From the UHGV virus genome UHGV-0168751: a DNA stretch of 15,474 nucleotides; one strand, 5' to 3'. Positions 1 to 15,474 of this stretch are shown piece after piece. Position 1 is the stretch's first letter; each line of letters starts with the position of its first letter. A program made the position numbers and the translations under genes. The stretch comes from a virus. The notes beneath the pieces are model-generated. The model ran no database searches and had not been told where the DNA came from. It saw nothing but the letters and a program-made list of their open reading frames with translations.

Positions 1-44
1 CACGTAAGGAGTCGTCGGCAGCGTCAGATGTGTATAAGAGACAG
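1..44. other. Illumina Nextera adapter remnant: P5 tail fragment CAC, i5 index GTAAGGAG, read-1 adapter TCGTCGGCAGCGTC, Tn5 mosaic end AGATGTGTATAAGAGACAG
   Basis: Exact match by eye to the known Nextera read-1 adapter and mosaic-end sequence; the same string is present reverse-complemented at 15424..15474. The ATG at 28 and the MCIRDS N-terminus of the track ORF 28..1344 are adapter-encoded. Confidence 0.95.
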
Positions 45-1344
45 CCCCTGGATTATGAGTTTTGTTTTAGACGACGAAATTCATTTCTTTGCTACGAAAG
101 ACTACGTCGCACGTTGCGGGCGTGAAAACTTTGAAGCACGACTCGTCAAACGAGCTCAAGAACTGCTTTCTAAAATCGCTTTTCGTGGGAAAGACGAGAA
201 CGACAACCCTATCATTAAATACAAGAACGTTATCGATGGCTACAAAATCTTCGTTTACGAATGCCTCAATTCAGGTTGTTGTATTCAACGGATGTTTGAA
301 GAAATCCACCCACGACTCCCTGATTTATTAGTCGCATGGAACCACGAGTTCGATATTTCACGTATGTTAGAAGCTTTAGAAGCTGCGGGAATTCCACCGG
401 AAGACGTCTTCTGTCACCCTGATGTGCCGAAGCAGTACCGTCGTGTCTACTTTAAGAAAGACGAAGCATCGAAGAAAACGGAATCAAAGTCGTTAACAAA
501 AGCGCCTTCACAACAGTGGCACATACTTTACTGTACCGCATCGTTCTATTGTGTAGATGCAATGTGTCTATTCCGTTCATTGCGTGTTCATGAGGGTCAA
601 CGGCCTTCTTACAAACTTAATGCGATTCTGGAAACAGAGTTAGGTTTAAACAAGTTAGACTTACCGGAGCTGCCTTACGAGGAGAAACTGGAGTGGCACT
701 TAAAAGCACAAAAAGACTTCCCGTTAGAGTATTGCGTTTATAACATCTTCGATAACCTGATGATTGTTCTGCTCGATAAAAAGACGAACGATTTGTCTTC
801 AGCTATTTCGGTGTTGGCCGGTTATTCGATGTACGATATCTTCCCTTCTCTACCAAAACGAATTTGTATTGCTTACACCTATTACCTTTATGAACAAGGA
901 CTCGTTATCGGATGTGTAGGTAGTGCGATGCGTAATGACTTCGATAATGAGGTTATTGGTACAGACGGTTGGATTGTTACGCTCACGGCGTGTATGAACG
1001 CAGAGAACGGATTACGGAACATCATTAAGGAAGTTGATGATTTCTACACGGCTTTCCGTGGTCAAACCGCAGATGCCGACTTAACTCAGGCTTACCCATC
1101 AGCAACAAACATGATGAATCAGTCTCGTGAAACAACGTTAATCGAACTGTTAAGTATTCATGGTGTTCCTGAAGAAGTCCGTCGTCGAGTCGGGATTAAC
1201 CTTACTGCGGGACGTGTTAACGCAATGGAAATCGCAACGGATTTCTTCTTGTTACCTGATAAGAATACCGTGCTGGAAGCTTTCCTACGCCGTCAAGGAG
1301 AGACAATCACCGATCCTTTTGAATACATCAAAACCGTCCACTAA
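45..1344 (+). CDS. Putative 3'-5' exonuclease-like protein (DEDDy/RNase D-like N-terminal domain, unknown C-terminal part); 5' end probably truncated by the fragment boundary
   Basis: Frame is open from the first genomic base; first Met at 55. Exo I-like LDDE at 67..78, Exo II-like N-x-x-F-D (WNHEFD) at 337..354, LG-x-x-K...W...Y-x3-D pattern with YNIFD at 739..753. Stop TAA 1342..1344 is followed by a terminator hairpin. No polymerase motifs seen downstream. Motif match is by eye only. Confidence 0.45.
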
Positions 1345-1360
1345 GAAAAAATAAAAGCTA

Positions 1361-1392
1361 CCCTACTCCTTCGGGAGTAGGGTAATTCTTTT
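1361..1392. terminator. Bidirectional intrinsic terminator between convergent genes
   Basis: 9-bp stem ccctactcc/ggagtaggg (1361..1369 and 1374..1382) closed by a TTCG tetraloop; T-run on plus strand 1383..1392 and A-run 1346..1360 (T-run on the minus strand). Confidence 0.7.
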
Positions 1393-1900
1393 AAGCCGCG
1401 TTGAAACAGTAAGCCAGTAACTGTTGCAGCTCAGGATCGGTTACGCGTTGCAACATGCGACCAACGTTATCACGTTGCGCAAAGTTTGCTTTATCCTGCG
1501 CATTTGCGAAACGCACTAACATGTTGATAAAGACAACATATGTTTCACGTTCTGCGGAATCGTGGAACCAATCTAAATGGTAGTTCACATTCGGGTAGTA
1601 GAAGATACCACGTTTGTGTTTAATTGCCGCTTCAACAAACACGTTGAACGCATCGATGAATGCTTGGCCACGGAGTTCGAATAACGTACGGAACGACTGA
1701 TGCAGTTTACGGAAAGCATCGTCAGCTTCAGCACCGTCTTTTGGTTTATTCTGACCGATTGCGCTGCCAGCTTCATCGAGTTGGGTAGCGATCAAGCGCA
1801 CTTGATACGCGTCGTCCTGGCTGTAAGTTACGGCGGCTTCTTCAGCGCGTTTTACTGCGGACGGACGTGCATCTTGTGTTGAAATATCTTTAGTTGCCAT
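1391..1900 (-). CDS. Hypothetical protein (169 aa)
   Basis: ATG start at 1898..1900 with TAAGGA Shine-Dalgarno about 13 nt upstream, overlapping the stop of the upstream gene; stop lies in the T-run of the 1361..1392 terminator. Confidence 0.6.
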   Translation of the reverse strand: MATKDISTQDARPSAVKRAEEAAVTYSQDDAYQVRLIATQLDEAGSAIGQNKPKDGAEADDAFRKLHQSFRTLFELRGQAFIDAFNVFVEAAIKHKRGIFYYPNVNYHLDWFHDSAERETYVVFINMLVRFANAQDKANFAQRDNVGRMLQRVTDPELQQLLAYCFNAA

Positions 1901-1913
1901 TGGTTAATAATCC

Positions 1914-3215
1914 TTACGTAATGTGGATCAATGGATTAAATTCGTGTACCACAGTCTCTTTACCGTGCATCGCGGCCATTGCCACGGACATAACGTTAGA
2001 GAACGCCGAGGAAATATCCGCAGCGATTGCGCGAGGTTCTTCCCCTTTATTCGCAGACGCGCACGCTGTGCAGCAGTCGATGTGGCCGTATTGACATAAG
2101 ATGGGTCGGCGTAATCGTACCACTTTACCTAACTGTTGCTTTAAATATTCCTCAGTCAGTGGTGTTAATTTACCATTCACCATCGCGTTCATTCCAACGT
2201 AACGCTTCACGTTATCCTCGGTAATCACAACCGGGTACGTTAATTTCGTTCCGCAGTCGCCAGGAACAATTCGATGGTTCTGGAAAATCATCTGGATGAT
2301 ACGTACCTGTTCACCCCCTTTCGCGGTTTCCGCACCACGAGAGAATGAACCCTCGCGAATAGAGTTGAATTTCGCGACCAGGTTTTCCATCCCTGCCTTA
2401 TCCACCTCAACCAGCGCGTTCGGAATGAGCGTGTAATGCCCACCTTCCTGGAAAGATGATTCAATACCATACATCAACATTAGCTTACGTCGACGCATCC
2501 GTGATTTCGGCGAGTTATAGAATTCAATAGATTGGTCTCCCGACAACCATTCTTTATCGAGTTCATCCAACGCCTTTTCAATCTTAACAATAACCGCAGG
2601 ATCGTCTAACTCGTCTTTGTGCTTCAACAATAACGCATCACGGATTTTATACGCATCAGGATGCACTGTAAGGCTTCGTAACGTACCCGTTGGTGCAATA
2701 CCTGACGTAAGCGGTGCAAGTTCGTGTAAGCCACTTACAAAGCGCTCAATCATGCTCGGACGAATCGCACCTTCGTTTTCCGGCTCATCGGTTTCGTGGT
2801 CTAAACAACGACGATGCATCTCTTTGCGATATTCCAACGGGTTTTGTGAAATCGCCAGATACGGTAAGCGCGTACCGAATGCGTACCAGATAACAATCCA
2901 GTTAAAGATATAACGTCCTACGGTAGTAGGAATCGGTCCTTCTAATCCTGGGTAGTCATCCACCTTCAGCTCGAACTGTTCTTCGGGAATAAACAGTTCT
3001 TGGTCTTTTACGCCGTCAGTAATCGGTTCCCAACTACCCTTGCCATCTTCTACAGCGTAGTAATGCGGCAAACCGTCAATATACGTAATATCAAACGCTT
3101 CGGGTTCTTCACGCCCCGTTGGAAACACCGACATGTTAAAGATAGCAATACGCCAGACCAGGCGACGCCATGCTTCGGCTTTACACGCAGCCACTAAGAA
3201 CTCAAATCTCGTCAT
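1914..3215 (-). CDS. Hypothetical protein (about 433 aa from ATG at 3213..3215; track ORF begins at a TTG at 3233)
   Basis: Long open frame; strong SD GAGGAGG (revcomp of 3224..3230) sits 9 nt upstream of the ATG at 3213..3215, which would lie inside the coding region if the TTG start were used. Overlaps the upstream gene stop by 14 nt. Confidence 0.6.
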   Translation of the reverse strand: MTRFEFLVAACKAEAWRRLVWRIAIFNMSVFPTGREEPEAFDITYIDGLPHYYAVEDGKGSWEPITDGVKDQELFIPEEQFELKVDDYPGLEGPIPTTVGRYIFNWIVIWYAFGTRLPYLAISQNPLEYRKEMHRRCLDHETDEPENEGAIRPSMIERFVSGLHELAPLTSGIAPTGTLRSLTVHPDAYKIRDALLLKHKDELDDPAVIVKIEKALDELDKEWLSGDQSIEFYNSPKSRMRRRKLMLMYGIESSFQEGGHYTLIPNALVEVDKAGMENLVAKFNSIREGSFSRGAETAKGGEQVRIIQMIFQNHRIVPGDCGTKLTYPVVITEDNVKRYVGMNAMVNGKLTPLTEEYLKQQLGKVVRLRRPILCQYGHIDCCTACASANKGEEPRAIAADISSAFSNVMSVAMAAMHGKETVVHEFNPLIHIT

Positions 3216-4056
3216 CGTGTTCTGCCTCCTCAACCTGATAAATCACCCGTAGACTTTTTAAAGCAGGTTGTAGAACAGTGATAGGTTGTAACCCATCATT
3301 ATTAAGTTTCTCTAAGTTCGTCGAAAGATCGGCATACGCATCGTCGAAGTCATCGTTATCGATAATCGATAGCCCTACCGTATACATCTCGAGCAATTCC
3401 GTTTCGCTGTAATCCTCAACATCAAACACCAACGATTGTTGGACAACGGTCAAGTCAGGATCTTCGGGTAAGTTTAAGAATACGAACGCAGAGGGGTTTT
3501 GTGGATAAAGTCGTAAATATTCTGCGATACGTGACAGTCGCGCGTCGTTACCTGTCGAGAGTTGTTCATCCACAGCCATTGCTGAGAGGTAGTTACGCAT
3601 TACTGTCATCACACGAGGAGAAACACGAATGACCAAATCTTCAAAATGGATATTATCGTCACCGTATACATAACGGCACATGCTTTCCAGGATATACTCT
3701 GGTGTTTCACCAGACATCACCAGACCGTATAACGTGTCGGTGTCTTCGAACTCTTCGAACTTAGACGTTATACCGTCCAGAATACGTACTGTCTCTTTCG
3801 GCTTACGGAAGACTTCTTGTGGGTTTAAAGCGACGCCTAAACGGTTACCTAATGCTACAGCGCTTTTTACAATAATCCCTTCCAGTCTTACAGTTTCGTC
3901 CGCAGGATCAGATGACGGTTGCCAATACACATCGCTTAACGCAACATCGTAACCGTAATCCATGCACAACGTCACTAAATCCAGGAAAGGCGCAGCACGT
4001 TCTTCCGCACGATTGACGGTAAGAACGGCAGCGTAATCGGTATAAATGTCAATCAT
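3202..4056 (-). CDS. Hypothetical protein with acidic C-terminus (about 284 aa from ATG at 4054..4056; track ORF begins at TTG 4068)
   Basis: Long open frame directly downstream (minus sense) of the 4091..4133 terminator; only a weak SD-like GGAAAAGG before the ATG; start choice is uncertain. Confidence 0.55.
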   Translation of the reverse strand: MIDIYTDYAAVLTVNRAEERAAPFLDLVTLCMDYGYDVALSDVYWQPSSDPADETVRLEGIIVKSAVALGNRLGVALNPQEVFRKPKETVRILDGITSKFEEFEDTDTLYGLVMSGETPEYILESMCRYVYGDDNIHFEDLVIRVSPRVMTVMRNYLSAMAVDEQLSTGNDARLSRIAEYLRLYPQNPSAFVFLNLPEDPDLTVVQQSLVFDVEDYSETELLEMYTVGLSIIDNDDFDDAYADLSTNLEKLNNDGLQPITVLQPALKSLRVIYQVEEAEHDDEI

Positions 4057-4090
4057 AGCCTTTTCCAATACAAGGGGTTCATACCAAAGC

Positions 4091-4133
4091 GAAAAAAAAA
4101 AGAAAAAGCTAAGGGAGTCTTTACGACTCCCTT
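4091..4133 (-). terminator. Intrinsic terminator (minus-strand sense)
   Basis: 9-bp stem aagggagtc/gactccctt (4111..4119 and 4125..4133), 5-nt loop, followed in the minus sense by a long T-run (plus-strand A-run 4091..4108). Confidence 0.65.
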
Positions 4134-4137
4134 ATAC

Positions 4138-4443
4138 TTAATTTTTCAGCTTAAGTTCTTTCTCCAAACCTTGTAGCTCTGGGTCACCGGCAGTAACGTC
4201 ACTCATGACTTTCTTAATCGCGGCTTTACGGCGATTAAGCACACGGAGCATCATCATGATTTCCCACCGTGGTCGATTTAACCACTCATCGAAAGTCATT
4301 CTGAAATGCTCGCCTATCTGCTCACGCAAATACACTTCCATCCAGATTTCGTACAAACTCCCATACTCGGGGTTTTCAAAATCTGATAAGCCAACGTGTT
4401 TCGTCCCGGTGTCTAGACCGACTGATAAATCGTACGCACCCAA
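4138..4443 (-). CDS. Hypothetical small protein (101 aa), questionable
   Basis: The only in-frame start is TTG at 4441..4443 with a poorly spaced SD-like AGGAAG; no in-frame ATG until residue 35. Retained only because the region would otherwise be non-coding in a dense genome. Confidence 0.3.
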   Translation of the reverse strand: MGAYDLSVGLDTGTKHVGLSDFENPEYGSLYEIWMEVYLREQIGEHFRMTFDEWLNRPRWEIMMMLRVLNRRKAAIKKVMSDVTAGDPELQGLEKELKLKN

Positions 4444-4559
4444 AAGCTCATCGTGGGCTTCCTGATAAGTTATCGGGCGCGTGCTACGTTGTTTGAACAG
4501 AGAGGTGGTATCAAGCTTAAGCGTATTAATGACATGATCCGAAGGAATCTCGTTCGGGT

Positions 4560-6518
4560 CTAGCCAATAACGGCGTATTGATCCCTCAGATACCGCTGAA
4601 TCTCGGACACCACTCGAGATAGCTCGAAAAAAACGCGGTCCGGTGAGATCGTCACGATACCACGGTAAGTGCCTTCTTTCTCGCCTTCATGGGTCTTACC
4701 GCAAGACGGACATTTCTGACCCATATACCCGAACACCGCCAAACGACTACGTTCGTTATAGTTCGCCGCAGCAACTTCAAAGTCGTACACATAATGACGA
4801 TCGGAAGACAGTTCCTCCAGAATCTGGATAATCTTATCGGTATCCGTTTCTGTGGTACTTACTTCGCGAACTTCATCGTCCTGCACAACTTCTTCAGTTA
4901 CCGTGATGGATTCCACCATATACGCGTAACGCGTTAGACGACGTGCTTCGGTGATGAGACGAAGATGATCTTCACGCTCACGTTCGGTGCCTTTCTCAGC
5001 CAATGCAGATGTGGAAGCGGTGTTGTTCTCTTCCACCCAACGTTCTGTATTATCAAAGAACTTACCTAGTGTGGAACGACCGAATTTAACGGTAATACCG
5101 TCGCTTACAAATGTCGCAGACGGATCTTTCAGGTGTTCTTCAACAAACTTACGTTGCTCCAAACGGCTGATCGTAACGTCTTCTTTACCACGCTGTTGGG
5201 CCCACAGGCTACGCTGCATATCGGTGTAAAGTGACGTACCCATGCGAATACAACGGGCCAGGTTCAAGCGGATGTCTTCTTGATAACCACAACCTTCATG
5301 GCCACAGATTAACGTCCACGGTAAGCCGCCAGGATATTTCGCTTGCATCACACCAATCAACAGCAACCAGTAATCCGCAAGGTCAATAGTATCCAGCAGC
5401 ACGGTCTTCATGTCGTTCCCTTCGCAATCCAACGTACAGTCGGTGACGAAGCGTAACGCAAATTCAACCATATGGCTTAAATAAATACCTGAAGACGCAG
5501 ATAGCATCAGACCATAAGTCTGCATACCAATTTTTGCAGTTTCCAGGGTCAGCTGAATATCAAAGTCACAGATTTCGCGTTCTAATGGTGCACGGAAACC
5601 GACAAAGATACCTGTTGCTGGCAACCATACCCAGTTAGGGATACCTGACTTACGACGACGGCGAAGTGCCGCAATAGCGCCAGAATGTTGGCTGTTACGT
5701 GGCGTAATGAAACCCACCGGCTTAGACATTCCCGGCAACTGCACACGCTGTTCCCAGGCGGTGTCTTCACGAGACAGCGCACCGTCAAACGCTTGCTGTT
5801 GGTTTTGTAAACGTGGTGGCATCATGTTCAAAGCACGATACAAACGCTCGTACAAATCACGTTGTTCTTCCGATTTAAACAGAAGACGACCATCGCTACC
5901 ACGTGGAATGCTGGAGAAGAATTTCTTCAGTTCACTACCGATAAGGTTCGGATCTTCACGTAAGCCAATCAGCGTATTGAAGTCGGTCAGGATGCGGCCA
6001 GGATCGTCTTCAGGCAATTCGCTGATTTCTTCGTGGGGTGCTTGTGTACCAAAATTCACCCGATGTTCGGATGGCTGTTCTTTTACCGCCGGTGACGCTT
6101 CAGGCTCGTGGTCAGCAGCAATCTGCGGGTCTTCAATCGCTTGAGGAACATAAGGTTCTTCGGCTTTCTTCTCTACCACCGGCTCAGGCTTGTGCTCAAC
6201 AGGTGCAGCAACAGGCTGCGGAATAACCGGTTCCACGACAACAGGTTCTGGTTGAGTAATCGTCACTGCCGGGGCAGGTTCTTCTTCATACACCGGCTTC
6301 GGTAAAATGGGTTCTTCAGCAGGTTTTACTTTTACAAGATTGTGATACATCTCTTCTGCTTGAGCAAAAGAAAAATGGGGATTACTGCGTTTAATAGCCA
6401 TAATCCCATCGTCAGCGGACAGTGTAGACAAGTCAACCTCAGGTACAATGACGTGAGGTGTGTCTTCCTGAGTCCGACGACGCCCATTACCTGGGCGTTG
6501 GTCTAAAGTATCTGACAT
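4560..6518 (-). CDS. Hypothetical protein (652 aa) with Pro/Glu/Val-rich low-complexity N-terminal region and two Cys pairs near the C-terminus
   Basis: ATG at 6516..6518 with AGAGGG SD; start is 3 nt from the upstream stop (TAATTAATG). Residues about 64-150 are PEPVV-type repeats; CGHEGC and CPSC motifs later. No recognisable catalytic motif. Confidence 0.7.
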   Translation of the reverse strand: MSDTLDQRPGNGRRRTQEDTPHVIVPEVDLSTLSADDGIMAIKRSNPHFSFAQAEEMYHNLVKVKPAEEPILPKPVYEEEPAPAVTITQPEPVVVEPVIPQPVAAPVEHKPEPVVEKKAEEPYVPQAIEDPQIAADHEPEASPAVKEQPSEHRVNFGTQAPHEEISELPEDDPGRILTDFNTLIGLREDPNLIGSELKKFFSSIPRGSDGRLLFKSEEQRDLYERLYRALNMMPPRLQNQQQAFDGALSREDTAWEQRVQLPGMSKPVGFITPRNSQHSGAIAALRRRRKSGIPNWVWLPATGIFVGFRAPLEREICDFDIQLTLETAKIGMQTYGLMLSASSGIYLSHMVEFALRFVTDCTLDCEGNDMKTVLLDTIDLADYWLLLIGVMQAKYPGGLPWTLICGHEGCGYQEDIRLNLARCIRMGTSLYTDMQRSLWAQQRGKEDVTISRLEQRKFVEEHLKDPSATFVSDGITVKFGRSTLGKFFDNTERWVEENNTASTSALAEKGTEREREDHLRLITEARRLTRYAYMVESITVTEEVVQDDEVREVSTTETDTDKIIQILEELSSDRHYVYDFEVAAANYNERSRLAVFGYMGQKCPSCGKTHEGEKEGTYRGIVTISPDRVFFELSRVVSEIQRYLRDQYAVIG

Positions 6519-6521
6519 TAA

Positions 6522-7094
6522 TTAACCCTCTGCTTCAACGACAGTATCCGGTTGTTTTACAGCCTGTTCAGCTTGCTGTAGAAGTTCATACGCTTCAGCG
6601 AACGTACTGCCCTGCTGCATTGCACGTTTTACAAAATCAGCACGGCTGTTGTAGAGTGACAAGATTTCGATCGCAGCGCCCTGAATATCTTTGCCCAGGA
6701 ACATCGCATCGGTTTCCAGGTTAGTCACCAGCAGCGTATCCAGCTCGTATTGCTCTTTGACTTTGGCCCAGTTTGCACTTTCCAGCAATGCTTTGGATTT
6801 GCTTGCCACTTCGTCAATCGCAATCAGTTTGGCACCCAGCTTCTCTTTCCCTTCTGCCATCAGGCCCACGAAAGCCGCTTTCGCTTCTTCTAATGCGTTA
6901 ATGGCAAATTCTTTATATTCGGGTTCTTGCAGCGCGTCCAGAATCTCACGTTCTTTGTCAATACGCTCAGCCAGGATTTTCATTTGGTCTTCAAACAGAA
7001 TGACCAGTTTATACACGTTCTTCACGCTATCACGAAGTGATTTCTTCGCCAGAGCACGTGGGTTATAAGCGGGTTTCTTTTTACGACGTGACAT
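6522..7094 (-). CDS. Hypothetical protein (190 aa) with basic N-terminus (MSRRKKKPAYNPR) and helical, charged remainder
   Basis: ATG at 7092..7094 with AAAGGAA SD 9 nt upstream; lies immediately downstream (minus sense) of the 7111..7142 terminator. Confidence 0.65.
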   Translation of the reverse strand: MSRRKKKPAYNPRALAKKSLRDSVKNVYKLVILFEDQMKILAERIDKEREILDALQEPEYKEFAINALEEAKAAFVGLMAEGKEKLGAKLIAIDEVASKSKALLESANWAKVKEQYELDTLLVTNLETDAMFLGKDIQGAAIEILSLYNSRADFVKRAMQQGSTFAEAYELLQQAEQAVKQPDTVVEAEG

Positions 7095-7110
7095 TTTTAT
7101 ATTCCTTTAA

Positions 7111-7142
7111 CAAAAAAGAAAGGGTGTACACAATATACACCC
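7111..7142 (-). terminator. Intrinsic terminator (minus-strand sense)
   Basis: Stem gggtgta/tacaccc (7122..7128 and 7136..7142) with 7-nt loop, followed in the minus sense by a T-run (plus-strand A-run 7111..7121). Confidence 0.55.
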
Positions 7143-7154
7143 GTTCTGTACTTT

Positions 7155-7538
7155 TTAACCGTTATCGTGAGGAACGGTTACCCAGCTGTGCCATTTCTCG
7201 GAGTATAACCGATAAGCCACTTTCGGGTTTTGGTCTACACTCCCTGCGGGGTTTTCAACCCACAGCACCCAGCTATACAGCTCGTAAGACGACGTATTAC
7301 GAATACTGGAGTTACGTGTGATGTAATAACATTTACCTCGTTGAAAAATCTGCATTCCTGCGTAGTGTTCATTCACCATGTAATAGTGAAACGCAACGCT
7401 CATCACAGGATCGGTGCAGAGTTTATTTACGACGTCTAAAACGTCGGGATACGCCTTTAAAACTTTTTCGAGAAAACTTGCTAAGTTCAGACCGGCATAC
7501 GGCGCGGTTGGCTCTGTTGGCTGCGGCGGTAGTAACAT
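7155..7538 (-). CDS. Hypothetical protein (127 aa)
   Basis: ATG at 7536..7538 with strong SD AAGGAAAG; start lies 116 nt inside the 3' end of the helicase gene in a different frame. Confidence 0.55.
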   Translation of the reverse strand: MLLPPQPTEPTAPYAGLNLASFLEKVLKAYPDVLDVVNKLCTDPVMSVAFHYYMVNEHYAGMQIFQRGKCYYITRNSSIRNTSSYELYSWVLWVENPAGSVDQNPKVAYRLYSEKWHSWVTVPHDNG

Positions 7539-9132
7539 CGGCTTTCCTTACAATATACGGTGAGGTGGCTATCTTAAACGACAACACAGAATCACTCAGT
7601 GACTTTTGACGCGCATTCAAGTAATTGCAGTGTTTCGGTATCGAGTAAGAATGGAATAACCACACAACGGGATCGAGTTCACCCCAATCGTTGTGGAGAA
7701 TCTTACGTGGGCGTCCGGCCATCTGGCGGTTTAACTGTTGGTCTTCCACAGGGGTGGTAATGTACATGTGAACCAACCCCGGTTTGTCAACCGCAGTACC
7801 CGCTTTCCCTGGTGTTGAAATAGAGAAATCCGCTTGAATAAAGTCGTCATACGAATCCCCTGCGTTATATTTCGCAACCATTAATGCATGGAACTTATCA
7901 GACTGTGCAAGTTTCTCTCGCACATATTCCGTAAAGAATTCACACATCGCAACTGTTGCAAACAACACCAATACTTTCTGACCAGGTTGATAACCTGCCA
8001 GATACGTCCGTTCTATCACGTCCCAGACCATATCCGCGTACGACTGATGAAGGTTTTCGCTAATCAACTTCCCTTCAAACAGTTTGTGGTTATACGGGGT
8101 CATCTTCGTTGCCCACCACGCAAACCGCTTATTTTCAATTCTGTAATACAACGCTTTCACATGTACCGCAGGAATAATCGGAATGGTGATACGTGCCTCT
8201 TGTGGGAAACGTTCTTTATACCGTTCTGCCAAGAATGCTTTTGATTCGCCCGGTTGGAGTGTGGCCGACATTTCGACAGAAGGTGGCGGATTCAACATAA
8301 TTCCAGCCATGTACACCAAGTGGAAATGTTCGTGCACTTCGTCCATCGATAAAAACCCGACACCTAACGTGTTATAGAAATCATCGATGTTCACTGGATT
8401 AGTCGCAGCAGTATTGATATACTCTTTCAAAAACCGCTGTAACGTCACCGTAGAGACGATAATCACTTTGATGCCACGTTTATCCAGCTCACCACTTTCA
8501 CCCATTTCTAGCGCTTCGTAGACCGCTTGTACGCCCTGTATAACCAGGACGTCTTCTTTCGATTCACGAAGGCCAGTAGGATCTTCCGTTAAGTCGAATA
8601 ACCACTTGGAAATATATGTGGGCCGATGAATCAATAACGTTCTTACCCCTTTACGAACCATCACCTTCATGTTGGTTTTCGACTTACCCATACCGGTGCC
8701 GATTTCAAAGATGGTTTGTAAACGGTTCGGCTGACAGGCCGTTTCGACAACCCCATTCTGATAAAAGAAACGTGACGACTCATCCTCTTCTATCATGTTA
8801 AAACCGTAGTTTTCAAACGTACAACGGTAAGGGGTTCCTTGGGTTAAGTGATGCTCGTAAAGTTTGAAGTCAATTGCAAACTCAGCAGCCGTTCGGTTAA
8901 TAATGATTCGTAAACGTTCGGAAAAATTCCGGTGGAATATAAAAGTACGGATAGAAGGAATATGCGCGTAATACGGATCACCACGTTCGGTAATAATTCT
9001 TCCGTATTGCTTGCCCATTTTCGGGGCGTGCATATTCTCTTCTGCCCACTTTAAGATTGCCGACTCTATAGGTCGGCAAGGGACTTCGACCCTCACGCCC
9101 ATACTCGTAAAGGTCATGTGGAATTCGTACAT
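7423..9132 (-). CDS. Superfamily 2 DExH-box helicase/ATPase (569 aa), nucleic-acid substrate unknown
   Basis: Motif I GTGMGKSKT, motif II DEVH, motif III SAT, motif IV-like VLVLFATV, motif V-like STPGKAGTAVD, motif VI QMAGRPR, in canonical order and spacing (core about 7693..8715). ATG at 9130..9132 with strong SD AAGAGGGGAG. Basic C-terminal tail RRFRRRK. Confidence 0.8.
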   Translation of the reverse strand: MYEFHMTFTSMGVRVEVPCRPIESAILKWAEENMHAPKMGKQYGRIITERGDPYYAHIPSIRTFIFHRNFSERLRIIINRTAAEFAIDFKLYEHHLTQGTPYRCTFENYGFNMIEEDESSRFFYQNGVVETACQPNRLQTIFEIGTGMGKSKTNMKVMVRKGVRTLLIHRPTYISKWLFDLTEDPTGLRESKEDVLVIQGVQAVYEALEMGESGELDKRGIKVIIVSTVTLQRFLKEYINTAATNPVNIDDFYNTLGVGFLSMDEVHEHFHLVYMAGIMLNPPPSVEMSATLQPGESKAFLAERYKERFPQEARITIPIIPAVHVKALYYRIENKRFAWWATKMTPYNHKLFEGKLISENLHQSYADMVWDVIERTYLAGYQPGQKVLVLFATVAMCEFFTEYVREKLAQSDKFHALMVAKYNAGDSYDDFIQADFSISTPGKAGTAVDKPGLVHMYITTPVEDQQLNRQMAGRPRKILHNDWGELDPVVWLFHSYSIPKHCNYLNARQKSLSDSVLSFKIATSPYIVRKADVTTAAANRANRAVCRSELSKFSRKSFKGVSRRFRRRK

Positions 9133-9143
9133 GCTCCCCTCTT

Positions 9144-9171
9144 ACAAAAAAAGAGGGGCGCAGGCCCCTCT
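9144..9171 (-). terminator. Intrinsic terminator (minus-strand sense) between the beta-prime-like gene and the helicase gene
   Basis: GC-rich stem gaggggc/gcccctc (9153..9159 and 9164..9170, extendable by one A-T pair), 4-nt loop, followed in the minus sense by TTTTTTT (plus-strand A-run 9146..9152). Confidence 0.7.
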
Positions 9172-9174
9172 CGT

Positions 9175-11274
9175 TTACTCAATGATAGTCGCGGCCACCG
9201 TATTGTCGTATAACGACGCCGGACGTTTACGTGACGTATAGAAACGCACGTTGTCCAGGTTTTTCTGTTGGCCTTCGAATAACAACATCGGTACAGCTGA
9301 ACGTATCGCAATCAACGTGTTGTGATCTTCGAAACGTTTACCGTCCATGATATCTGCGTCTTCGCTATCAAACCCAACTGCCGGGAAAGGATTGGTTGGT
9401 GACTCAACGCGAGATATCGCCAGCATAATCGCGATGTGTGTCATCGGAATACCACCGAGCTTACGCTGAATATACTTAAACACATCAAACAACGCATGTG
9501 TACATTGTTTTTCCGTAGCACCGCGCATCTGAACCAGTGTTGTGGGTTTTACTTTACCCGACTTCTTGCTCAAACGCATTGAGTCATCCGAGAACTGTTC
9601 GAAAGTATCCGATTTATCAGAAGCAACCGAACGAAGTTTCAATTCTAACCCTGCTACGAACTCCGCCATAGATTCAGACCGATTCGTATAAATTAGTATC
9701 GGCCAACTCGGTTTCCAGCCTTTCAGTGGAATCCGTACCAGTTTCTTCGACGGGAACGTAATGTTATCACGCTGCTTCAGGAAGAAATGCAAGAAGGCTT
9801 TCGAGAAGTTACCACAAACCCCCATACGGACGTCGATGGGATCTTCAGCCAGTACATTCCCGGCTTCATCCATCCGCAAAAAGGTCAGTTCGTTAATCTC
9901 CGGCAACGCCGTTTCGTCAATCACTTCCAAATCGTCATGGTACGCGATTTGGCTGATTTCAGAATAGACTTCATCGGAAATAACGAGTTGGTATTCATCC
10001 CAATTACCGTACTGCGGTTTCTCTCGTAAACTTAGACCTTTTACAGAGTTGTGTTTATACTCCCCAAGATAATCCCGCATTCTTGGGGTCAGTACCAGAT
10101 TCAACAGATAGCGCAAGAAGTCTAAATGTTTCGTTGAGAGAATCCCCTGGGTACCCTTTTCAGATATCGAGGTTGAGGCCAAGTGACCTGGTGACGTTCC
10201 CGGCGAAAGGTTATAAATCAAATCACCCATGCAGGTTGCACAAATGCTTTGACGCGCCATCCCCTTACAACACATCGCAGTACGGAACTCAATAGGTTTG
10301 CCTAAGACTTTCTCAAACTCCCCTTTCTCGAATCGTAGCCACGGACCTCCCATGCCTTCAAAACGATAACGCATTCCCACCATCGCATCGTACTTCTTAC
10401 GCTCCAGTTTACTTTCTGTAAACGTGTGGCGATGAACGTGATGCGTACCACAATCGTCGTATTCGAAATACATTAACACGTTGGCTGCTAACTGTAGCTT
10501 ACGTGACGCGTATTCCGCATCGGCGATTTTATCGGTATTATAAAGATGAGAACGTGACGTTGCCCCGGCTTCCTTCAGGCGGCTAATTACGGAATGCAGA
10601 CCCGTAAAGAAACCTTCCCATACCTGGTTAGAATAAACGCGGGAATCAATCTCGGATGTTTTCCCACGTATATACGCCTGAAGAACCTGGTTCATTTTGA
10701 TGGTCTTATCCAAGACCGACATCACCACAGGGTTTAAACGAAGTTGTGGGTCTTTGAAGATATCCTCGATAAGAAGATATGCTTCCTCAACCATATCACG
10801 ACCTTCTTCGTCGTACCCAGTAGGATACATTTGTGCCCACTGATGAATCTGCGTAAAGTTTCGGTGTTGGTAAATTTCCATCATCGTATCGTAGTCAATC
10901 GTGACGCAATACGACAACAGATTTTTCACCGACAAGTTAAACGCATCCGCATAAACGTGCTGCTGCAATAAGTAACGAGTGTCTGCTAAATCCACGCCCG
11001 CTTTACGTGCCGCCACAGCTGCCAATGACATAAACTTCAGATGTGCGTCATCTGTCGCGGTGTCACCATGTTTATACGCCATCTGTGAACTGATTGGGAT
11101 CTGCGGATAAAATCGTGTTAGACCCCAATAAGGCCAACTTATTTTAATGTGGCGTCCTGACATGTTTAAGGTTACCCCATCGTCGAACGTCACTTCATAT
11201 CTGCCGCGTAATAGCCACACCTGATCCGAGTTCAGTTTACACAAATCACGCACGTGAACTGGAGTGCCCTTCAT
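9175..11274 (-). CDS. Multisubunit RNA polymerase beta-prime-like protein, C-terminal module (699 aa)
   Basis: Trigger-loop-like segment ASTSISEKGTQGILSTKH (about 10120..10197) resembles the bacterial SIGEPGTQLTMRTFH; a weaker bridge-helix-like segment lies about 130 residues upstream, matching the bacterial spacing. No Asp-triad catalytic loop, so the N-terminal beta-prime module is not here. ATG overlaps the upstream stop (TAATG). By-eye similarity only. Confidence 0.6.
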   Translation of the reverse strand: MKGTPVHVRDLCKLNSDQVWLLRGRYEVTFDDGVTLNMSGRHIKISWPYWGLTRFYPQIPISSQMAYKHGDTATDDAHLKFMSLAAVAARKAGVDLADTRYLLQQHVYADAFNLSVKNLLSYCVTIDYDTMMEIYQHRNFTQIHQWAQMYPTGYDEEGRDMVEEAYLLIEDIFKDPQLRLNPVVMSVLDKTIKMNQVLQAYIRGKTSEIDSRVYSNQVWEGFFTGLHSVISRLKEAGATSRSHLYNTDKIADAEYASRKLQLAANVLMYFEYDDCGTHHVHRHTFTESKLERKKYDAMVGMRYRFEGMGGPWLRFEKGEFEKVLGKPIEFRTAMCCKGMARQSICATCMGDLIYNLSPGTSPGHLASTSISEKGTQGILSTKHLDFLRYLLNLVLTPRMRDYLGEYKHNSVKGLSLREKPQYGNWDEYQLVISDEVYSEISQIAYHDDLEVIDETALPEINELTFLRMDEAGNVLAEDPIDVRMGVCGNFSKAFLHFFLKQRDNITFPSKKLVRIPLKGWKPSWPILIYTNRSESMAEFVAGLELKLRSVASDKSDTFEQFSDDSMRLSKKSGKVKPTTLVQMRGATEKQCTHALFDVFKYIQRKLGGIPMTHIAIMLAISRVESPTNPFPAVGFDSEDADIMDGKRFEDHNTLIAIRSAVPMLLFEGQQKNLDNVRFYTSRKRPASLYDNTVAATIIE

Positions 11275-13511
11275 TATTCATCGCCCCTTTTCATTTTCAC
11301 CAATTCAAACCCTTCGCAGTTGTGGATGTTTTTCATCATCCTGTCAATCTGTGAATCCCCTAACGGGAATTTATTCCGGTCTACCAGCGGACCCGGATTA
11401 GACGGGGTTTGAGATCGATAAAGCCCTACTAAAATCTCACGATGCACCGCAGGGTTGTTTGCCCTATCGTGAACTTCTTCGTAGTTACCTGGACCATAAC
11501 CCGCTAACAGTCGTTCTTCCGAAGGACCAGCCCATTTTAGCGTTTTATAGTTTATCGGATACGAACCACGGCCTTGGTTAGACGCGTCTATCGTGCCCAG
11601 ATAGTTCAGGTACATTGACGAGATACTGGAAAACTCACGGCCTGTTTTATCCAGACGTAATGTTTCCACACCGCCCACGTAAAACTCGTCTTTTGTCCAT
11701 TCCTGTTTACCGTCGAAATTAGTAATCAGGAGTTTGGATTTACGCGGTTTAAATTCACCTAACCGTTCGCTGATATCGACAGGTGTGTCATCCAGCTCAT
11801 GCGGCAAATAGATACGGATTGTAAAATCGTAAATCTCTTTAAAGAGTTCGCGTTGTAAATCCTCCGTAGGATGCGTTACCTGTAGTGTATTGGCCCAATC
11901 AGGATTATAACGTGACAGATAATCCATCAGGATTTCCCAGCTCTCACTGATACGCCCTTCATCCAGCATTGGTTTAAGACGCATCTTCAGCTGCTCAGAC
12001 GCCGCTGACCAATACATGTGGAACAGTGCTGCATAAGTCGAACGACGAATTACAGCGTTCATCGAACGTAAAACATGAACACGTTCACCGAATTCGTTAA
12101 TCGGCATCTGTTCAACGGGTAATACACGTCCAACAATCCCTTTCGTACCCGAACGGTCAGTAATCTTAGACGATACCGTTACCGGGATCGGATAACGAAC
12201 CGCAATACGAATAGTATACGTATTGATGGGATCGCTGAGTCCACGTTGTACTGGTGAGGTCAACTTAGAAAGAATCTGTTGGCTAACATTTTCTTTACCG
12301 TATTCACCACGACGAATGGCTTCATCAATCACCACGCGAATCTCTTCACGAAATTCGTGATAGACTTCGTAGGTTTCAGATGCAAACGCTTTTTCCAACA
12401 ACACACACGCTTTCGGTGACCAGATAATATTTTTGTCACGAGACATCGAGAAATAGAATCGCACAATGGCATTGTAATAATCTTTCAATGCTAATGCGTA
12501 TTTATCTAACTCTCGTTTGTTCTCTTCAGTACAAGAAATATTGTTAGTCCCATTCGCACAGGACGTTTCATCGCGCCACACCTGAATGTCCACGATACGT
12601 GTACCGCTACGCTCCATCAGTTCTTTGTCACCTGCCAGCCGCGCTTTATAATGGACGGGATCGGCATCCACATATTCGCAACTATCAAAGAACGGTGAAA
12701 CGTGTTGGGTTTCCCCAAGCGTCGCATCAATCGCAGCGTAAAGTTCATCGAAACGACGTGATGCAATAACCAACCCGTCATCACGAATAGCTTCGCCCAC
12801 ATCCGGGAAATAACGAGGAACGCGATTACCGTTCGGATCGTTATACCCATAGGTGTCTAACAGAAACTCATCTTCACGCAACGTTTTCTCGATGATTTTC
12901 AATCCATACCCGTGAAGCTTTTGTGCGGCGTATTCAGAAATGGTGTAGGAATCCTCGATAATGTCAGGATGCGAAATCGTAACGGTGGGTAGCACTACGC
13001 TGTCAGCGTATTCTCCTTCTACCATGCACGGCATCGTTGTAAGGATTTCATCTTTTTCCAACTGATCGGTTTCACCACGCAAAATACTGCGCAGTTTCAT
13101 CGATTCATGTTTCTCAGATGAGAAGATGTTGTCGTGATTGGTATAGAAGTTAATCTCCAACACGTCTATCATGGTTTTACCGCCTTTCATTTCTGCGCGG
13201 CGGAAGAAGATAGCGTGCTCCAGTGCTTTAGAATCCCCACGGCGTCCATAACGTGTAAACGTTGCACGACGCTGACGACCGTCTTTGGTCATATAGTGAC
13301 AGATGCTACCGGGATCTTCTACAACGTCGTTGAACAGAAAATCGTGGTAGTTTATATCTGCCCCTGTAAAATGTGGTGATGGTTCAGGATTGTCAATGGG
13401 GACCGCAGACTTCATATGGTTGCCTACCATCGATGCCCTTGCACCGGATACTTCGGTGATGTTAATCTCACGGTCAGCTACACTGCTCATTAGCTCTACT
13501 GGCGTTTTCAT
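11274..13511 (-). CDS. Multisubunit RNA polymerase beta-like protein, C-terminal module (745 aa)
   Basis: Residues 451-490 DRSGTKGIVGRVLPVEQMPINEFGERVHVLRSM (about 12042..12161) align with the conserved beta segment [33 protein letters not shown]; the C-terminal KWAGPSEERLLAGYG resembles beta EVWALEAYGA. Motif position implies only the C-terminal roughly 740 residues of a beta subunit. ATG at 13509..13511 with AAGGAG SD. Confidence 0.75.
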   Translation of the reverse strand: MKTPVELMSSVADREINITEVSGARASMVGNHMKSAVPIDNPEPSPHFTGADINYHDFLFNDVVEDPGSICHYMTKDGRQRRATFTRYGRRGDSKALEHAIFFRRAEMKGGKTMIDVLEINFYTNHDNIFSSEKHESMKLRSILRGETDQLEKDEILTTMPCMVEGEYADSVVLPTVTISHPDIIEDSYTISEYAAQKLHGYGLKIIEKTLREDEFLLDTYGYNDPNGNRVPRYFPDVGEAIRDDGLVIASRRFDELYAAIDATLGETQHVSPFFDSCEYVDADPVHYKARLAGDKELMERSGTRIVDIQVWRDETSCANGTNNISCTEENKRELDKYALALKDYYNAIVRFYFSMSRDKNIIWSPKACVLLEKAFASETYEVYHEFREEIRVVIDEAIRRGEYGKENVSQQILSKLTSPVQRGLSDPINTYTIRIAVRYPIPVTVSSKITDRSGTKGIVGRVLPVEQMPINEFGERVHVLRSMNAVIRRSTYAALFHMYWSAASEQLKMRLKPMLDEGRISESWEILMDYLSRYNPDWANTLQVTHPTEDLQRELFKEIYDFTIRIYLPHELDDTPVDISERLGEFKPRKSKLLITNFDGKQEWTKDEFYVGGVETLRLDKTGREFSSISSMYLNYLGTIDASNQGRGSYPINYKTLKWAGPSEERLLAGYGPGNYEEVHDRANNPAVHREILVGLYRSQTPSNPGPLVDRNKFPLGDSQIDRMMKNIHNCEGFELVKMKRGDE

Positions 13512-13574
13512 TTTAATGCTCCTTTAGGTTGATTCGGTAGGATAATATCTATCTCACTTATTTTAGGAACGATT

Positions 13575-13898
13575 ATGTTAGACAATTTTATTACCCTAGA
13601 AGAATTCATACCTGCGCCTTACACCACGACGTGGAAAGTGATGCACGATTACACAGACTATCTGCGTAAACACCCGAAAACTAAAATAGAAAATGTTGAC
13701 CCACGCTACAGCTGGCCTGAAGTCCACAATTTCTACGCCTACTGTAAACTCAAAGGTTACGCCGATATCATTATCTATCCGATGATGCTATTAAACGGGC
13801 TAGAAGACCCCATGAATTTCACCCCTGAAATCACGCAGCTGATCGTTCCCGACGTCGGGACGGTCAGTGAGATTATTAGCACCATCGGCGACTATTAA
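13575..13898 (+). CDS. Hypothetical protein (107 aa), the only internal plus-strand gene
   Basis: ATG at 13575 with AGGAA SD; ends at TAA just before the 13902..13930 hairpin. Divergent from the beta-like gene and convergent with the 459-aa gene. Confidence 0.5.
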   Translation: MLDNFITLEEFIPAPYTTTWKVMHDYTDYLRKHPKTKIENVDPRYSWPEVHNFYAYCKLKGYADIIIYPMMLLNGLEDPMNFTPEITQLIVPDVGTVSEIISTIGDY

Positions 13899-13901
13899 AA
13901 A

Positions 13902-13930
13902 AAGAAGGGACCGTGTCCCTTCTTTTATAT
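13902..13930. terminator. Bidirectional intrinsic terminator between convergent genes
   Basis: Stem aagaagggac/gtcccttctt (13902..13911 and 13915..13924) with a short loop, flanked by an A-run upstream and a T-rich run downstream on the plus strand. Confidence 0.65.
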
Positions 13931-13935
13931 TTCAC

Positions 13936-15315
13936 TTAACGCGTAAACGCTGAAGTTGCAATTCCACCGAAGCTGTTTTGGGATTGTCCACCAAAACTGT
14001 TGTTCGTTGCAAATGCTGAACTTGTGCTAAACGCGCTAGTACCCCCTACATTCCCGCCAAAGGAATTACTTCCTCCACCAAAGGTACTTGCCAAAGAACC
14101 CCCGGTATTTCCCCCACCGAAATTACCCTGGCCTCCGAATGGGGACATCTTACGCTCACCACCAAACGCATCCACAACAGAGATTCGACTTACCATACCG
14201 TTGGCAGGGTTGGTCGTGCCGTGTTGTTCAGCGTAGCGTTGCATCGCCGGTGTCAAATTCCCATAGGGACTATGTGCGGCCATGCTACGCTCACGGGCGC
14301 GGAAGAATTCCATCGGATCAGACTTATCTGCCTTATCTGCGTCCGATGCACGTTTCTGCGGGATCTGCTGCGGAGCCTGCTCACGATCAATACGGAAATC
14401 ATGCGCTGTGGTATCCCGTTCAGGACTGTCAGAGCGTGGACCAGTGTTATACGGTAAGGTCTGAATGACGTTATCGTAAATTTCCATATTGTCCAGCTGA
14501 GAAATCCATTCATCTTCTAACGGTCGTAATGGGGAATGGTCACGCAACCCTTTAACGACGTTGTTATAGTTTACAACGTACTGTGCCCAACCGCGTGCTA
14601 AACAACCGAAGTACGGACGAGAATCATTAGACCCTGTTACACTCGGATACCAACCAAATACGGTGGTCAGTAAACGATGAATAATGATTTTGTCCTGCTT
14701 ACGTTGAAGTTTCGCAGAGAAGTACATTGCAGTACCATCTAACGATTCTTCTTCAAACATATTTCGATAATTGGCAACACGGTTAAATTTCACACCGTCA
14801 ATAACTAAATCGGATGCGATAAAGAGCTGAGTAATCTTGTGCTTTTTATCCTTTTCCAGTTGGGCGTAGACAAATGCTTTAACCGCTTCCCAGGATTTCA
14901 CCAAACGTTCGTCAAACGTCGGATCTTTCATCCCTTCACAAATCTGTTCTGTTAAGAACTTCTTGTAAGAAGCGGAACGTACCGCTTTGCCGCTTGCTCC
15001 GGTTTCCAAAATTGCATCGATTAGCGCAAACGAACGAATGAACAGGTTCGCATTGATGGATTTCTTCAGAAAACGAATTGTCCCAGATTCGCCTGCCAAT
15101 ACCGATTCGCATAACGGATGAAACGCCTGGCATTCACGACCATCATCGTCTTCCATGCCGCGCTTAATCATCGCTGGGGTAGGAAGCGCCAGACGGCGCT
15201 TCACTTTGTTATACGTAAACTCTGCCGGTTCACCACCGTCACGAGTAAGTAAATCGTTTTCGAAATCGTATCCTTGTGATTTAAGAAACGATTTGTAGAA
15301 TTCAATAATTTTCAT
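13936..15315 (-). CDS. Hypothetical protein (459 aa) with Gly/Ser/Phe-rich low-complexity C-terminal tail of repeated SFGG/FGGG units
   Basis: ATG at 15313..15315 with AAGGA SD 8 nt upstream; the last 76 residues (13939..14166) are a run of FGG-type repeats; terminator follows the stop. Confidence 0.7.
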   Translation of the reverse strand: MKIIEFYKSFLKSQGYDFENDLLTRDGGEPAEFTYNKVKRRLALPTPAMIKRGMEDDDGRECQAFHPLCESVLAGESGTIRFLKKSINANLFIRSFALIDAILETGASGKAVRSASYKKFLTEQICEGMKDPTFDERLVKSWEAVKAFVYAQLEKDKKHKITQLFIASDLVIDGVKFNRVANYRNMFEEESLDGTAMYFSAKLQRKQDKIIIHRLLTTVFGWYPSVTGSNDSRPYFGCLARGWAQYVVNYNNVVKGLRDHSPLRPLEDEWISQLDNMEIYDNVIQTLPYNTGPRSDSPERDTTAHDFRIDREQAPQQIPQKRASDADKADKSDPMEFFRARERSMAAHSPYGNLTPAMQRYAEQHGTTNPANGMVSRISVVDAFGGERKMSPFGGQGNFGGGNTGGSLASTFGGGSNSFGGNVGGTSAFSTSSAFATNNSFGGQSQNSFGGIATSAFTR

Positions 15316-15337
15316 TTAAGAGTCCTTGATTAATCTT

Positions 15338-15423
15338 TTACTCGCCGAATGCACCAAAGCCAGTTACTGGCGCAGGAGTTGACATATCGCTGCTACCAAA
15401 GCTGCCGAAACTACCCAGGGTTG
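15338..15423 (-). CDS. 3' end of a gene truncated by the fragment boundary; encoded C-terminus is Gly/Phe-rich (TLGSFGSFGSSDMSTPAPVTGFGAFGE)
   Basis: Frame open from the last genomic base (15423) to stop TAA at 15338..15340; next gene starts 22 nt downstream in the minus sense. Confidence 0.5.
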
Positions 15424-15474
15424 CTGTCTCTTATACACATCTGACGCTGCCGACGACTCCTTACGTGTAGATCT
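15424..15474. other. Illumina Nextera adapter remnant, reverse complement of the left-end adapter (mosaic end, read-1 adapter, i5 index CTCCTTAC, P5 fragment GTGTAGATCT)
   Basis: CTGTCTCTTATACACATCTGACGCTGCCGACGA followed by CTCCTTAC and GTGTAGATCT; exact inverted copy of 1..44 extended into P5. Confidence 0.95.

Follow-up and report, generated by a model that had tools for sequence, protein, structure and literature searches.

Helicase gene and conserved motifs

The window analyzed in this study, a stretch of 15,474 nucleotides (nt) representing the virus genome UHGV-0168751, encodes a helicase of superfamily 2 (SF2) next to genes of a phage-encoded RNA polymerase. The helicase gene (7423..9132, minus strand, ATG start) encodes a protein of 569 amino acids and was identified from the list of open reading frames (ORFs), its translation, PHROG_16, BLASTP, an AlphaFold2 model, and fold matches. 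It begins 42 nt past the stop codon of the gene encoding the beta' C-terminal subunit of the non-virion RNA polymerase (699 amino acids, 9175..11274, minus strand; Pfam Rpb1_5 (weak), phrog_3015 2.9e-224). The beta' gene itself follows the gene of the beta subunit with the catalytic barrel (745 amino acids, 11274..13511, minus strand; Pfam Rpb2_6 1.9e-5, phrog_3295 2.6e-253). An initial annotation of this DNA had described an SF2 DExH helicase directly downstream of an RNA polymerase gene pair. The position holds on the minus strand, and motifs, PHROG_16, profile matches, and fold matches agree on the helicase assignment.

The SF2 motifs Q, I, Ia, II, III, IV, V, and VI are all present in canonical order in the translation of the 569-amino acid ORF. 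The core motifs reported earlier were relocated, and residues and coordinates (all on the minus strand) could be assigned to each of them. Helicase domain 1 starts with a Q-motif-like sequence, FFYQ (residues 122–125, 8758..8769), whose Q125 is invariant in the family alignment and aligns with the YQ of the archaeal protein XPBII. Motif I (Walker A, GTGMGKSKT) comprises residues 145–153 (8674..8700) and is followed by motif Ia (LIHRPTYISKW, residues 167–177, 8602..8634), which aligns to the Ia region of XPBII. In this region, the family alignment shows no variation at W177 and almost none at R164 and Y173. Motif II (DEVH, residues 264–267, 8332..8343) and motif III (SAT, residues 289–291, 8260..8268, followed by LQPGES) were assigned from the translation and the family alignment. 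The strand of motif IV (VLVLFAT, residues 387–393, 7954..7974) was located in the AlphaFold2 model, in which three helices (residues 335–376) precede it. Motif V (STPGKAGTAVD, residues 439–449, 7786..7818) contains the invariant residues T440, T446, and D449, and motif VI (QQLNRQMAGRPR, residues 465–476, 7705..7740) the invariant residues Q470, R474, and R476. The last three residues as well as G147, G149, K150, D264, E265, and T291 are invariant in relatives down to 20% identity.

The motifs are flanked by an N-terminal alpha/beta domain (residues 1–97, 8842..9132, minus strand), which appears to resemble the N-terminal damage-recognition domain (DRD) of XPB, and by a basic C-terminal tail (residues 531–569, 7426..7542, minus strand) identified in the translation and the AlphaFold2 model. 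The basic character of the tail had been noted before and is evident from 13 K/R versus 2 D/E in the last 39 residues. From residue 546 onward, the tail is predicted to be disordered and is the sole disordered part of the model. The 3' end of the gene is overlapped by 116 nt (7423–7538) by a downstream ORF in another frame (127 amino acids, phrog_9835, 7155..7538, minus strand; ORF list and PHROG), so that residues 532–569 of the tail are encoded in the overlap. The downstream ORF has its own ribosome-binding site (AAGGAAAG), and an identical overlap is found in the SPN3US annotation. The basic tail is missing in three members of the alignment (P0102, P0117, and P0118). The orthologs of phiKZ (gp75) and RAY (gp250) are approximately 512–515 amino acids long and differ from the window protein in that they do not have the tail of about 40 residues. 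The tail and the overlap are specific to the SPN3US/Erwinia clade.

Sequence and structural relatives

The helicase protein matches PHROG_16 ("DNA helicase") at 4e-50. A tblastn search of the GenBank phage set gave matches in 289 phage records, and a profile search of 1.84 billion cluster representatives gave 1151 representatives at E ≤ 1e-30. Most of the best 150 representatives match profile positions ~1–526 in one stretch, including the N-terminal domain. The match to this helicase family is far beyond chance. The protein alone had no match in Pfam, NCBIfam, and PADLOC scans, nor did the single sequence match any PDB sequence in a phmmer search, for which a family profile (24 orthologs) was needed. 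With this profile, XPBII of Sulfurisphaera and Rad25 of Archaeoglobus were the top PDB sequences (E ~1e-4), the alignment to XPBII spanning YQ, motif I, and the motif Ia region. When the family members were scanned singly, DEAD (15 out of 24) and ResIII (14 out of 24) were the commonest Pfam matches. Among the NCBIfam models, the XPB model NF045503 was both the commonest and the best match (six of the 24 members, best E 2.5e-8), and TIGR00603 (rad25) was also matched. Only the more typical family members reached the DEAD, ResIII, XPB, or PbeA models.

The AlphaFold2 model is confident (pLDDT 87.4, pTM 0.77) and displays two RecA-like domains. It was built from an alignment of 38 homologs, which was confined to the SPN3US-like clade and two distant members because the second and third searches of a set of 5.8 billion proteins, with the phiKZ, RAY, and Bacillus phage orthologs added to the alignments, gave the same ~119 proteins. 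In a Foldseek comparison with the PDB, Ssl2/XPB in RNA polymerase II (Pol II) pre-initiation complexes ranked first (E 1.8e-13), T4 UvsW third, and archaeal XPB fifth, out of 343 SF2 matches at E ≤ 0.001. When the N-terminal domain of the model was compared, it matched XPB N-terminal domains best. An hhalign comparison of the family profile with T4 UvsW, for which one sequence only was used, resulted in a probability of 29.5% with the domains out of register.

By sequence and model, the protein is an intact SF2 ATPase in which an alpha/beta domain of about 100 residues at the N-terminus is followed by two RecA-like domains. Among known proteins, XPB/Rad25/Ssl2 are the closest to it in sequence and predicted fold; T4 UvsW and further translocases of duplex DNA come next. 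The margin of XPB/Rad25 over generic SF2 cores is modest, with four methods in concordance. Shared with XPB/Rad25/Ssl2 are the predicted order of an N-terminal domain, putatively DRD-like, and two RecA-like domains, the DEVH sequence of motif II, the YQ and P...W elements near motifs I and Ia, and the association with a multisubunit RNA polymerase, here by gene position. However, the identity to these proteins is just 11–13%, and the host of the gene is a phage rather than an archaeon or eukaryote. A further difference concerns the RED motif, which is Arg-Glu-Asp directly after motif III of XPB. XPBII has TATPERDDG at the aligned position, whereas an L-x-P-G sequence replaces the RED motif in the phage protein; the family consensus is SATLxPG with nearly invariant Pro294 and Lys298. 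A p52/p8 or Bax1-type partner was found neither among the ten largest ORFs of the window nor among the genes annotated beside the helicase in related loci (SPN3US, PA7, and RAY). Because the RED motif is missing and no TFIIH/Bax1-type partner was found nearby, the protein is designated XPB/Rad25-like rather than XPB, within the wider XPB-UvsW-ResIII branch of SF2.

Like the window protein, T4 UvsW is an SF2 helicase encoded by a phage and similar in size, and both share the same fold and architecture, in which a nucleic acid-binding domain at the N-terminus precedes two RecA-like domains. UvsW acts on DNA and on RNA-DNA hybrids according to the T4 annotation. It differs in that the profile match to the single UvsW sequence was not significant and that UvsW is not linked to polymerase genes. 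As to the substrate, DNA is favored over RNA, since translocases of duplex DNA are the nearest relatives and the N-terminal domain appears similar to the XPB DRD. The sequence does not formally distinguish the two, as the initial annotation had already cautioned.

Orthologs and source phage

According to nucleotide and protein searches, the source phage is a nucleus-forming jumbo phage of the SPN3US/phiEaH2 group. Its helicase shares 73–75% identity with those of SPN3US (YP_009153330), phiEaH2, and Stratton. In BLASTP searches, it corresponds to PA7 gp307 (phiKZ gp75) and RAY gp250, the beta' gene to PA7 gp308 (phiKZ gp74) and RAY gp249, and the beta gene to PA7 gp310+gp309 (phiKZ gp71+gp73) and RAY gp248. 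The record of Erwinia phage RAY labels gp248 and gp249 as nvRNAP beta and beta' "subunit 2", respectively, and gp250 as "non-virion SWI/SNF family helicase". In the SPN3US clade, the helicase is the ortholog of phiKZ gp75 and RAY gp250 and belongs to the core proteins of the nucleus-forming jumbo phages (Chimalliviridae). It shares 22–27% identity with the phiKZ-type and RAY orthologs, along with the domain order and the position after beta and beta'.

The phage recurs in public data, with protein identities of 99–100%. A cluster of 293 proteins from Salmonella enterica isolate assemblies (P0001) is 99% identical, and two IMG/VR genomes of 221–225 kb (L022 and L027) encode an identical helicase (100%). 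None of the GenBank phage records is closer than ~75% protein identity to the helicase. The phage lineage seems to be common in Salmonella sequencing.

Many orthologs are about 910 amino acids long and contain an intein (Pfam PF05203, PF05204, and PF14528) in the Walker A motif, inserted between K150 and residue 151. The first residue of the intein is Ala in the ortholog P0046. The gene was enlarged in at least 17 of 80 loci sampled from IMG/VR (e.g., L029, L038–L041, and L073), and the helicase match of some GenBank relatives is in two pieces spanning 2.7 kb. Unlike many of its relatives, the window helicase, in which the Lys150 codon is located at 8683–8685, has no intein in the Walker A motif.

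Conserved order of polymerase and helicase genes

The order beta, beta', and helicase on one strand was found in 10 GenBank phage lineages. These include SPN3US, PA7 (phiKZ-like), RAY, Vibrio phage pVp-JHP1101, Xanthomonas phage RTH11, Bacillus phage AgentSmith, Pseudomonas phage HHBS47_1, and Klebsiella phage FBKp24. The order is also kept in Ralstonia phage FLC1-1B with two inserted ORFs and in Aeromonas phage CF8 with three small inserted ORFs. The sample from IMG/VR comprised helicases 26–100% identical to the query, and its loci were searched with sets of beta and beta' orthologs. The beta' gene was directly upstream of the helicase gene on the same strand in 80 out of 80 loci (gap 2–1637 nt), and the beta gene preceded beta' in 78 of them. 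Within the GenBank phages, similar numbers of records contain the helicase (289) and beta' (256), and the genera are the same. The linkage, for which conservation in related genomes had been named as a check, is therefore kept in all relatives examined.

The genes upstream of beta are also syntenic in SPN3US, PA7, and RAY, and unrelated core genes share the block. In nucleus-forming jumbo phages in general, gene order is kept over whole core blocks (PMC10299810). The adjacency to the polymerase genes is weak functional evidence because the whole neighborhood is a syntenic core block.

Hairpin upstream of the helicase gene

A terminator-like hairpin (GAGAGGGGC-CTGC-GCCCCTCTT, followed by a run of T; 9144..9172, minus strand) is located between the beta' stop codon and the ribosome-binding site and ATG of the helicase gene. 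It takes the form GAGGGGC-loop-GCCCCTC followed by T7. The stem is conserved, and the loop varies between almost all relatives within the SPN3US/Erwinia clade, in which the spacer between beta' and helicase measures 42–78 nt and contains a GC-rich hairpin with a T run. The conserved hairpin sets the window clade apart from phiKZ gp75 and RAY gp250; RAY-like phages and several other clades have a spacer of just 2–30 nt with no hairpin. GAGGGG...CCCCTC has a single occurrence in the window and is thus no repeated element there. Because the spacer holds a strong terminator-like hairpin, co-transcription of the polymerase genes and the helicase gene is not assured in the SPN3US/Erwinia clade. In general type, the hairpin is comparable to the G/C-rich terminator hairpins that were mapped in phiKZ (phiKZ transcript-map paper); the text of that paper does not mention gp74 or gp75. 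There is also complementarity between the 3' arm of the hairpin (CCCCTC) and GAGGGG, the ribosome-binding site that closely precedes the helicase ATG (region 9134–9172). From the sequence, an alternative pairing that masks the ribosome-binding site of the helicase gene is conceivable.

Further genes and contig ends

Three further ORFs of the window were assigned to core genes, all on the minus strand. An ORF of 439 amino acids (1914..3233) encodes a subunit of the virion RNA polymerase (phiKZ gp80; PHROG and BLASTP), and an ORF of 652 amino acids (4560..6518) matches PA7 gp303 (BLASTP). The third (459 amino acids, 13936..15315) matches PA7 gp313, which corresponds to PHIKZ070 according to BLASTP and the phiKZ gene table. 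An assignment of this ORF as an ortholog of PicA/Imp1 (phiKZ gp69) was ruled out by the gene lengths in phiKZ. PHIKZ070 received almost no transposon insertions in phiKZ (PMC12676376 supplement 2).

Both ends of the window carry an Illumina Nextera adapter (TCGTCGGCAGCGTCAGATGTGTATAAGAGACAG at 11–43 and its reverse complement at 15425–15457). The adapter-affected ends comprise positions 1–43 and 15425–15474, so that phage DNA extends from ~44 to 15424. Because of the adapter at both ends, the window is regarded as a complete contig from an assembly in which the adapters were left untrimmed. The DNA polymerase ORF (28–1344) has its "ATG at 28" inside the adapter; the gene is therefore cut by the contig end.

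Proposed role of the helicase in the phage nucleus

The helicase family, its Rad25 affinity, the polymerase linkage, and the hypothesis of a function in transcription have been published before, and the copy in the window is an ordinary member of the family. In group 1 of the jumbo phages, Iyer, Anantharaman, Krishnan, Burroughs, and Aravind (Viruses 2021, PMC7824862) described an SF2 helicase "specifically related to Rad25", whose phyletic pattern correlates with that of the polymerase subunits and whose gene often adjoins those of the beta' C-terminal and the catalytic beta subunits. They proposed it as a possible functional equivalent of RapA. RAY gp250 is a core gene, and its GFP fusion was observed inside the phage nucleus (Prichard et al., Cell Rep 2023, PMC10299810). 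A fusion of phiKZ gp75 was cytosolic at 10 min, whereas at 40 min it was observed in the nucleus or adjacent to it (bioRxiv 2024.03.24.586471). In a transposon screen of phiKZ, PHIKZ075 (1614 nt) had two insertion sites with 15 reads, compared with two to four sites and 116–5481 reads (mostly >1500) for adjacent small dispensable genes and no insertions in the essential polymerase genes (PMC12676376 supplement 2). Judged from these transposon counts, PHIKZ075 appears to be near-essential in phiKZ. Antisense knock-down of PHIKZ075 lowered the ChmA level (PMC12571901).

The transcription-associated reading already in print is plausible. We consider a DNA-dependent translocase or ATPase that assists the non-virion RNA polymerase as the most likely role of the protein, with a probability of roughly 45%. 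The helicase would be produced in the cytoplasm and accumulate in or at the phage nucleus beside the phage DNA and the non-virion polymerase, as was shown for orthologs. There, it may track along the phage duplex DNA driven by ATP, and this motion could remodel transcription complexes of the non-virion polymerase. Possible actions are the release or recycling of stalled polymerase, an aid to termination, and the stripping of nascent RNA (R-loops) from the template. Such activities would be needed because the nuclear shell bars most host proteins, probably including Rho, Mfd, and RapA, and because transcription in the nucleus is uncoupled from translation. Mfd and the poxvirus proteins A18R/NPH-I are among the proposed functional analogs. 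RapA of Escherichia coli (Swi2/Snf2) is another, being an SF2 DNA translocase that recycles or releases a multisubunit polymerase (PMC7824862). The likeness to RapA and Mfd does not go beyond the generic SF2 core: their polymerase-binding modules showed no specific similarity to the helicase in sequence or domains, and the helicase has neither the Snf2-specific helical insertions nor the N-terminal polymerase-binding domains of RapA.

Several points besides the block-wise synteny weigh against a role as a polymerase assistant. The purified five-subunit non-virion polymerase of phiKZ reportedly transcribes in vitro without the helicase. Neither biochemical or interaction data tying the helicase to this polymerase nor a functional study of the helicase was found in publications on gp075/PHIKZ075, jumbo phage XPB, or SPN3US amber mutants. 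In the SPN3US/Erwinia clade, the terminator-like hairpin parts the helicase from the polymerase genes. The polymerase cluster in phiKZ Grad-seq data names gp79, gp122, gp176, and gp264 as extra members, not gp75 (PMC10914614), and the antisense knock-down of PHIKZ075 left plaque and colony counts unreduced (PMC12571901). Finally, the helicase is the sole core SF2 helicase of the phage nucleus and a UvsX-type recombinase is present, so that a role in recombination fits equally well (PMC10299810, PMC7824862).

The last point leads to the strongest alternative, in which the protein is a branch-migration helicase similar to UvsW or RecG that serves recombination-dependent replication and fork rescue in the phage nucleus, and its place beside the polymerase genes is inherited block synteny. 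We regard this as a strong competitor, though less likely than the role in transcription. UvsW and UvsY are missing from this phage group despite the presence of a UvsX/RecA homolog, and Iyer et al. suggested Snf2/Swi2-type SF2 helicases of the group as stand-ins for UvsW (PMC7824862). The status of the protein as the only core nuclear SF2 helicase and the conservation of gene order over whole core blocks (both PMC10299810) are in accordance with this explanation, as is the close structural neighborhood of UvsW, third in the Foldseek ranking. One set of GenBank annotators labels an ortholog "UvsW-like" via HHpred against 2OCA. All sequence-based comparisons, however, prefer XPB/Rad25 to UvsW, and the variable downstream genes show a looser association than the helicase with its 80/80 adjacency and its phyletic correlation with the polymerase subunits. 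The mis-registered 29% match of hhalign to the single T4 UvsW sequence is a weak test that neither supports nor firmly excludes a relationship. Iyer et al. placed the UvsW/A18 helicases in a different group of jumbo phages (PMC7824862). A UvsW-like protein may also unwind R-loops in the service of replication rather than transcription, and an R-loop helicase would satisfy both explanations.

Two other alternatives appear improbable. In the first, the protein acts in initiation like XPB in TFIIH: by translocation on the duplex, it pumps downstream DNA into the non-virion polymerase and thereby opens middle or late promoters. The five-subunit phiKZ polymerase alone is said to initiate at late promoters in vitro, which counts against such a factor. 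The XPB RED motif is missing, with SATLQPGES in its place, no TFIIH-like or Bax1-like partner was detected at the locus in Pfam and PHROG scans, and gp75 is unnamed in the polymerase cluster of the Grad-seq study cited above. In favor of such a factor are the proximity to the polymerase genes, the best structural matches (Ssl2/XPB in Pol II pre-initiation complexes), and the absence of a canonical sigma factor in these phages (PMC7824862).

The second, for which the chances are slightly lower still, is an RNA helicase whose substrate would be phage mRNA, nascent or nuclear, during processing, remodeling of ribonucleoprotein (RNP) particles, or export through the nuclear shell. The combination of DEVH and SAT is also found in Ski2-like and DExH RNA helicases, and ChmC (gp67), an RNA-binding nuclear protein of phiKZ, has its gene in this region as well, some eight genes upstream. 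Against this, four methods rank translocases of duplex DNA as the top relatives, the N-terminal domain appears similar to the DRD of XPB, which binds DNA, and motif Ia is of the P...W type common to XPB, Snf2, and HsdR.

A terminase large subunit or an anti-restriction ATPase in place of a helicase, as suggested by GenBank labels of orthologs ("terminase large subunit", "DNA helicase/terminase", "DarB-like antirestriction"), is effectively refuted: the best homology is to XPB/Rad25, UvsW, HsdR, and Hef, no terminase match was obtained in Pfam, PHROGs, or fold searches, the model has two RecA-like domains with motifs IV–VI and no nuclease domain, and the terminase of phiKZ is another gene, gp25 (PMC12571901). 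By family and fold evidence, the terminase and DarB labels in OR413585.1, OR413581.1, MK368614.1, MN562221.1, OP123707.1, OP599913.1, and NC_070958.1 are wrong. The appropriate annotation is XPB/Rad25-like SF2 helicase (phiKZ gp75 family), with the polymerase linkage as a family trait. To the published knowledge, the present analysis adds the synteny count (80/80), the absence of the RED motif, an assignment of the N-terminal domain by structure, and two clade-specific features, namely the terminator hairpin and the basic tail.

No other core SF2 motor is found inside the phage nucleus, and in phiKZ the protein seems to be almost essential. Should it serve the non-virion polymerase as an accessory motor, it would close a gap in the understanding of how these phages terminate transcription, recycle polymerase, and avoid R-loops where host factors appear to be missing, and it would represent a prokaryotic-virus counterpart to XPB/TFIIH. 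A more far-reaching and only tentative proposal is that the XPB-like duplex-DNA motor is an obligatory factor of the sigma-independent phage polymerase, required for termination, recycling, or promoter opening. If this were true, the obligatory pairing of motor and polymerase would parallel the arrangements of TFIIH with Pol II and of A18R/NPH-I in poxviruses, and the coupling of an XPB-type translocase to a multisubunit polymerase would be ancient or would have arisen repeatedly where transcription parted from translation.

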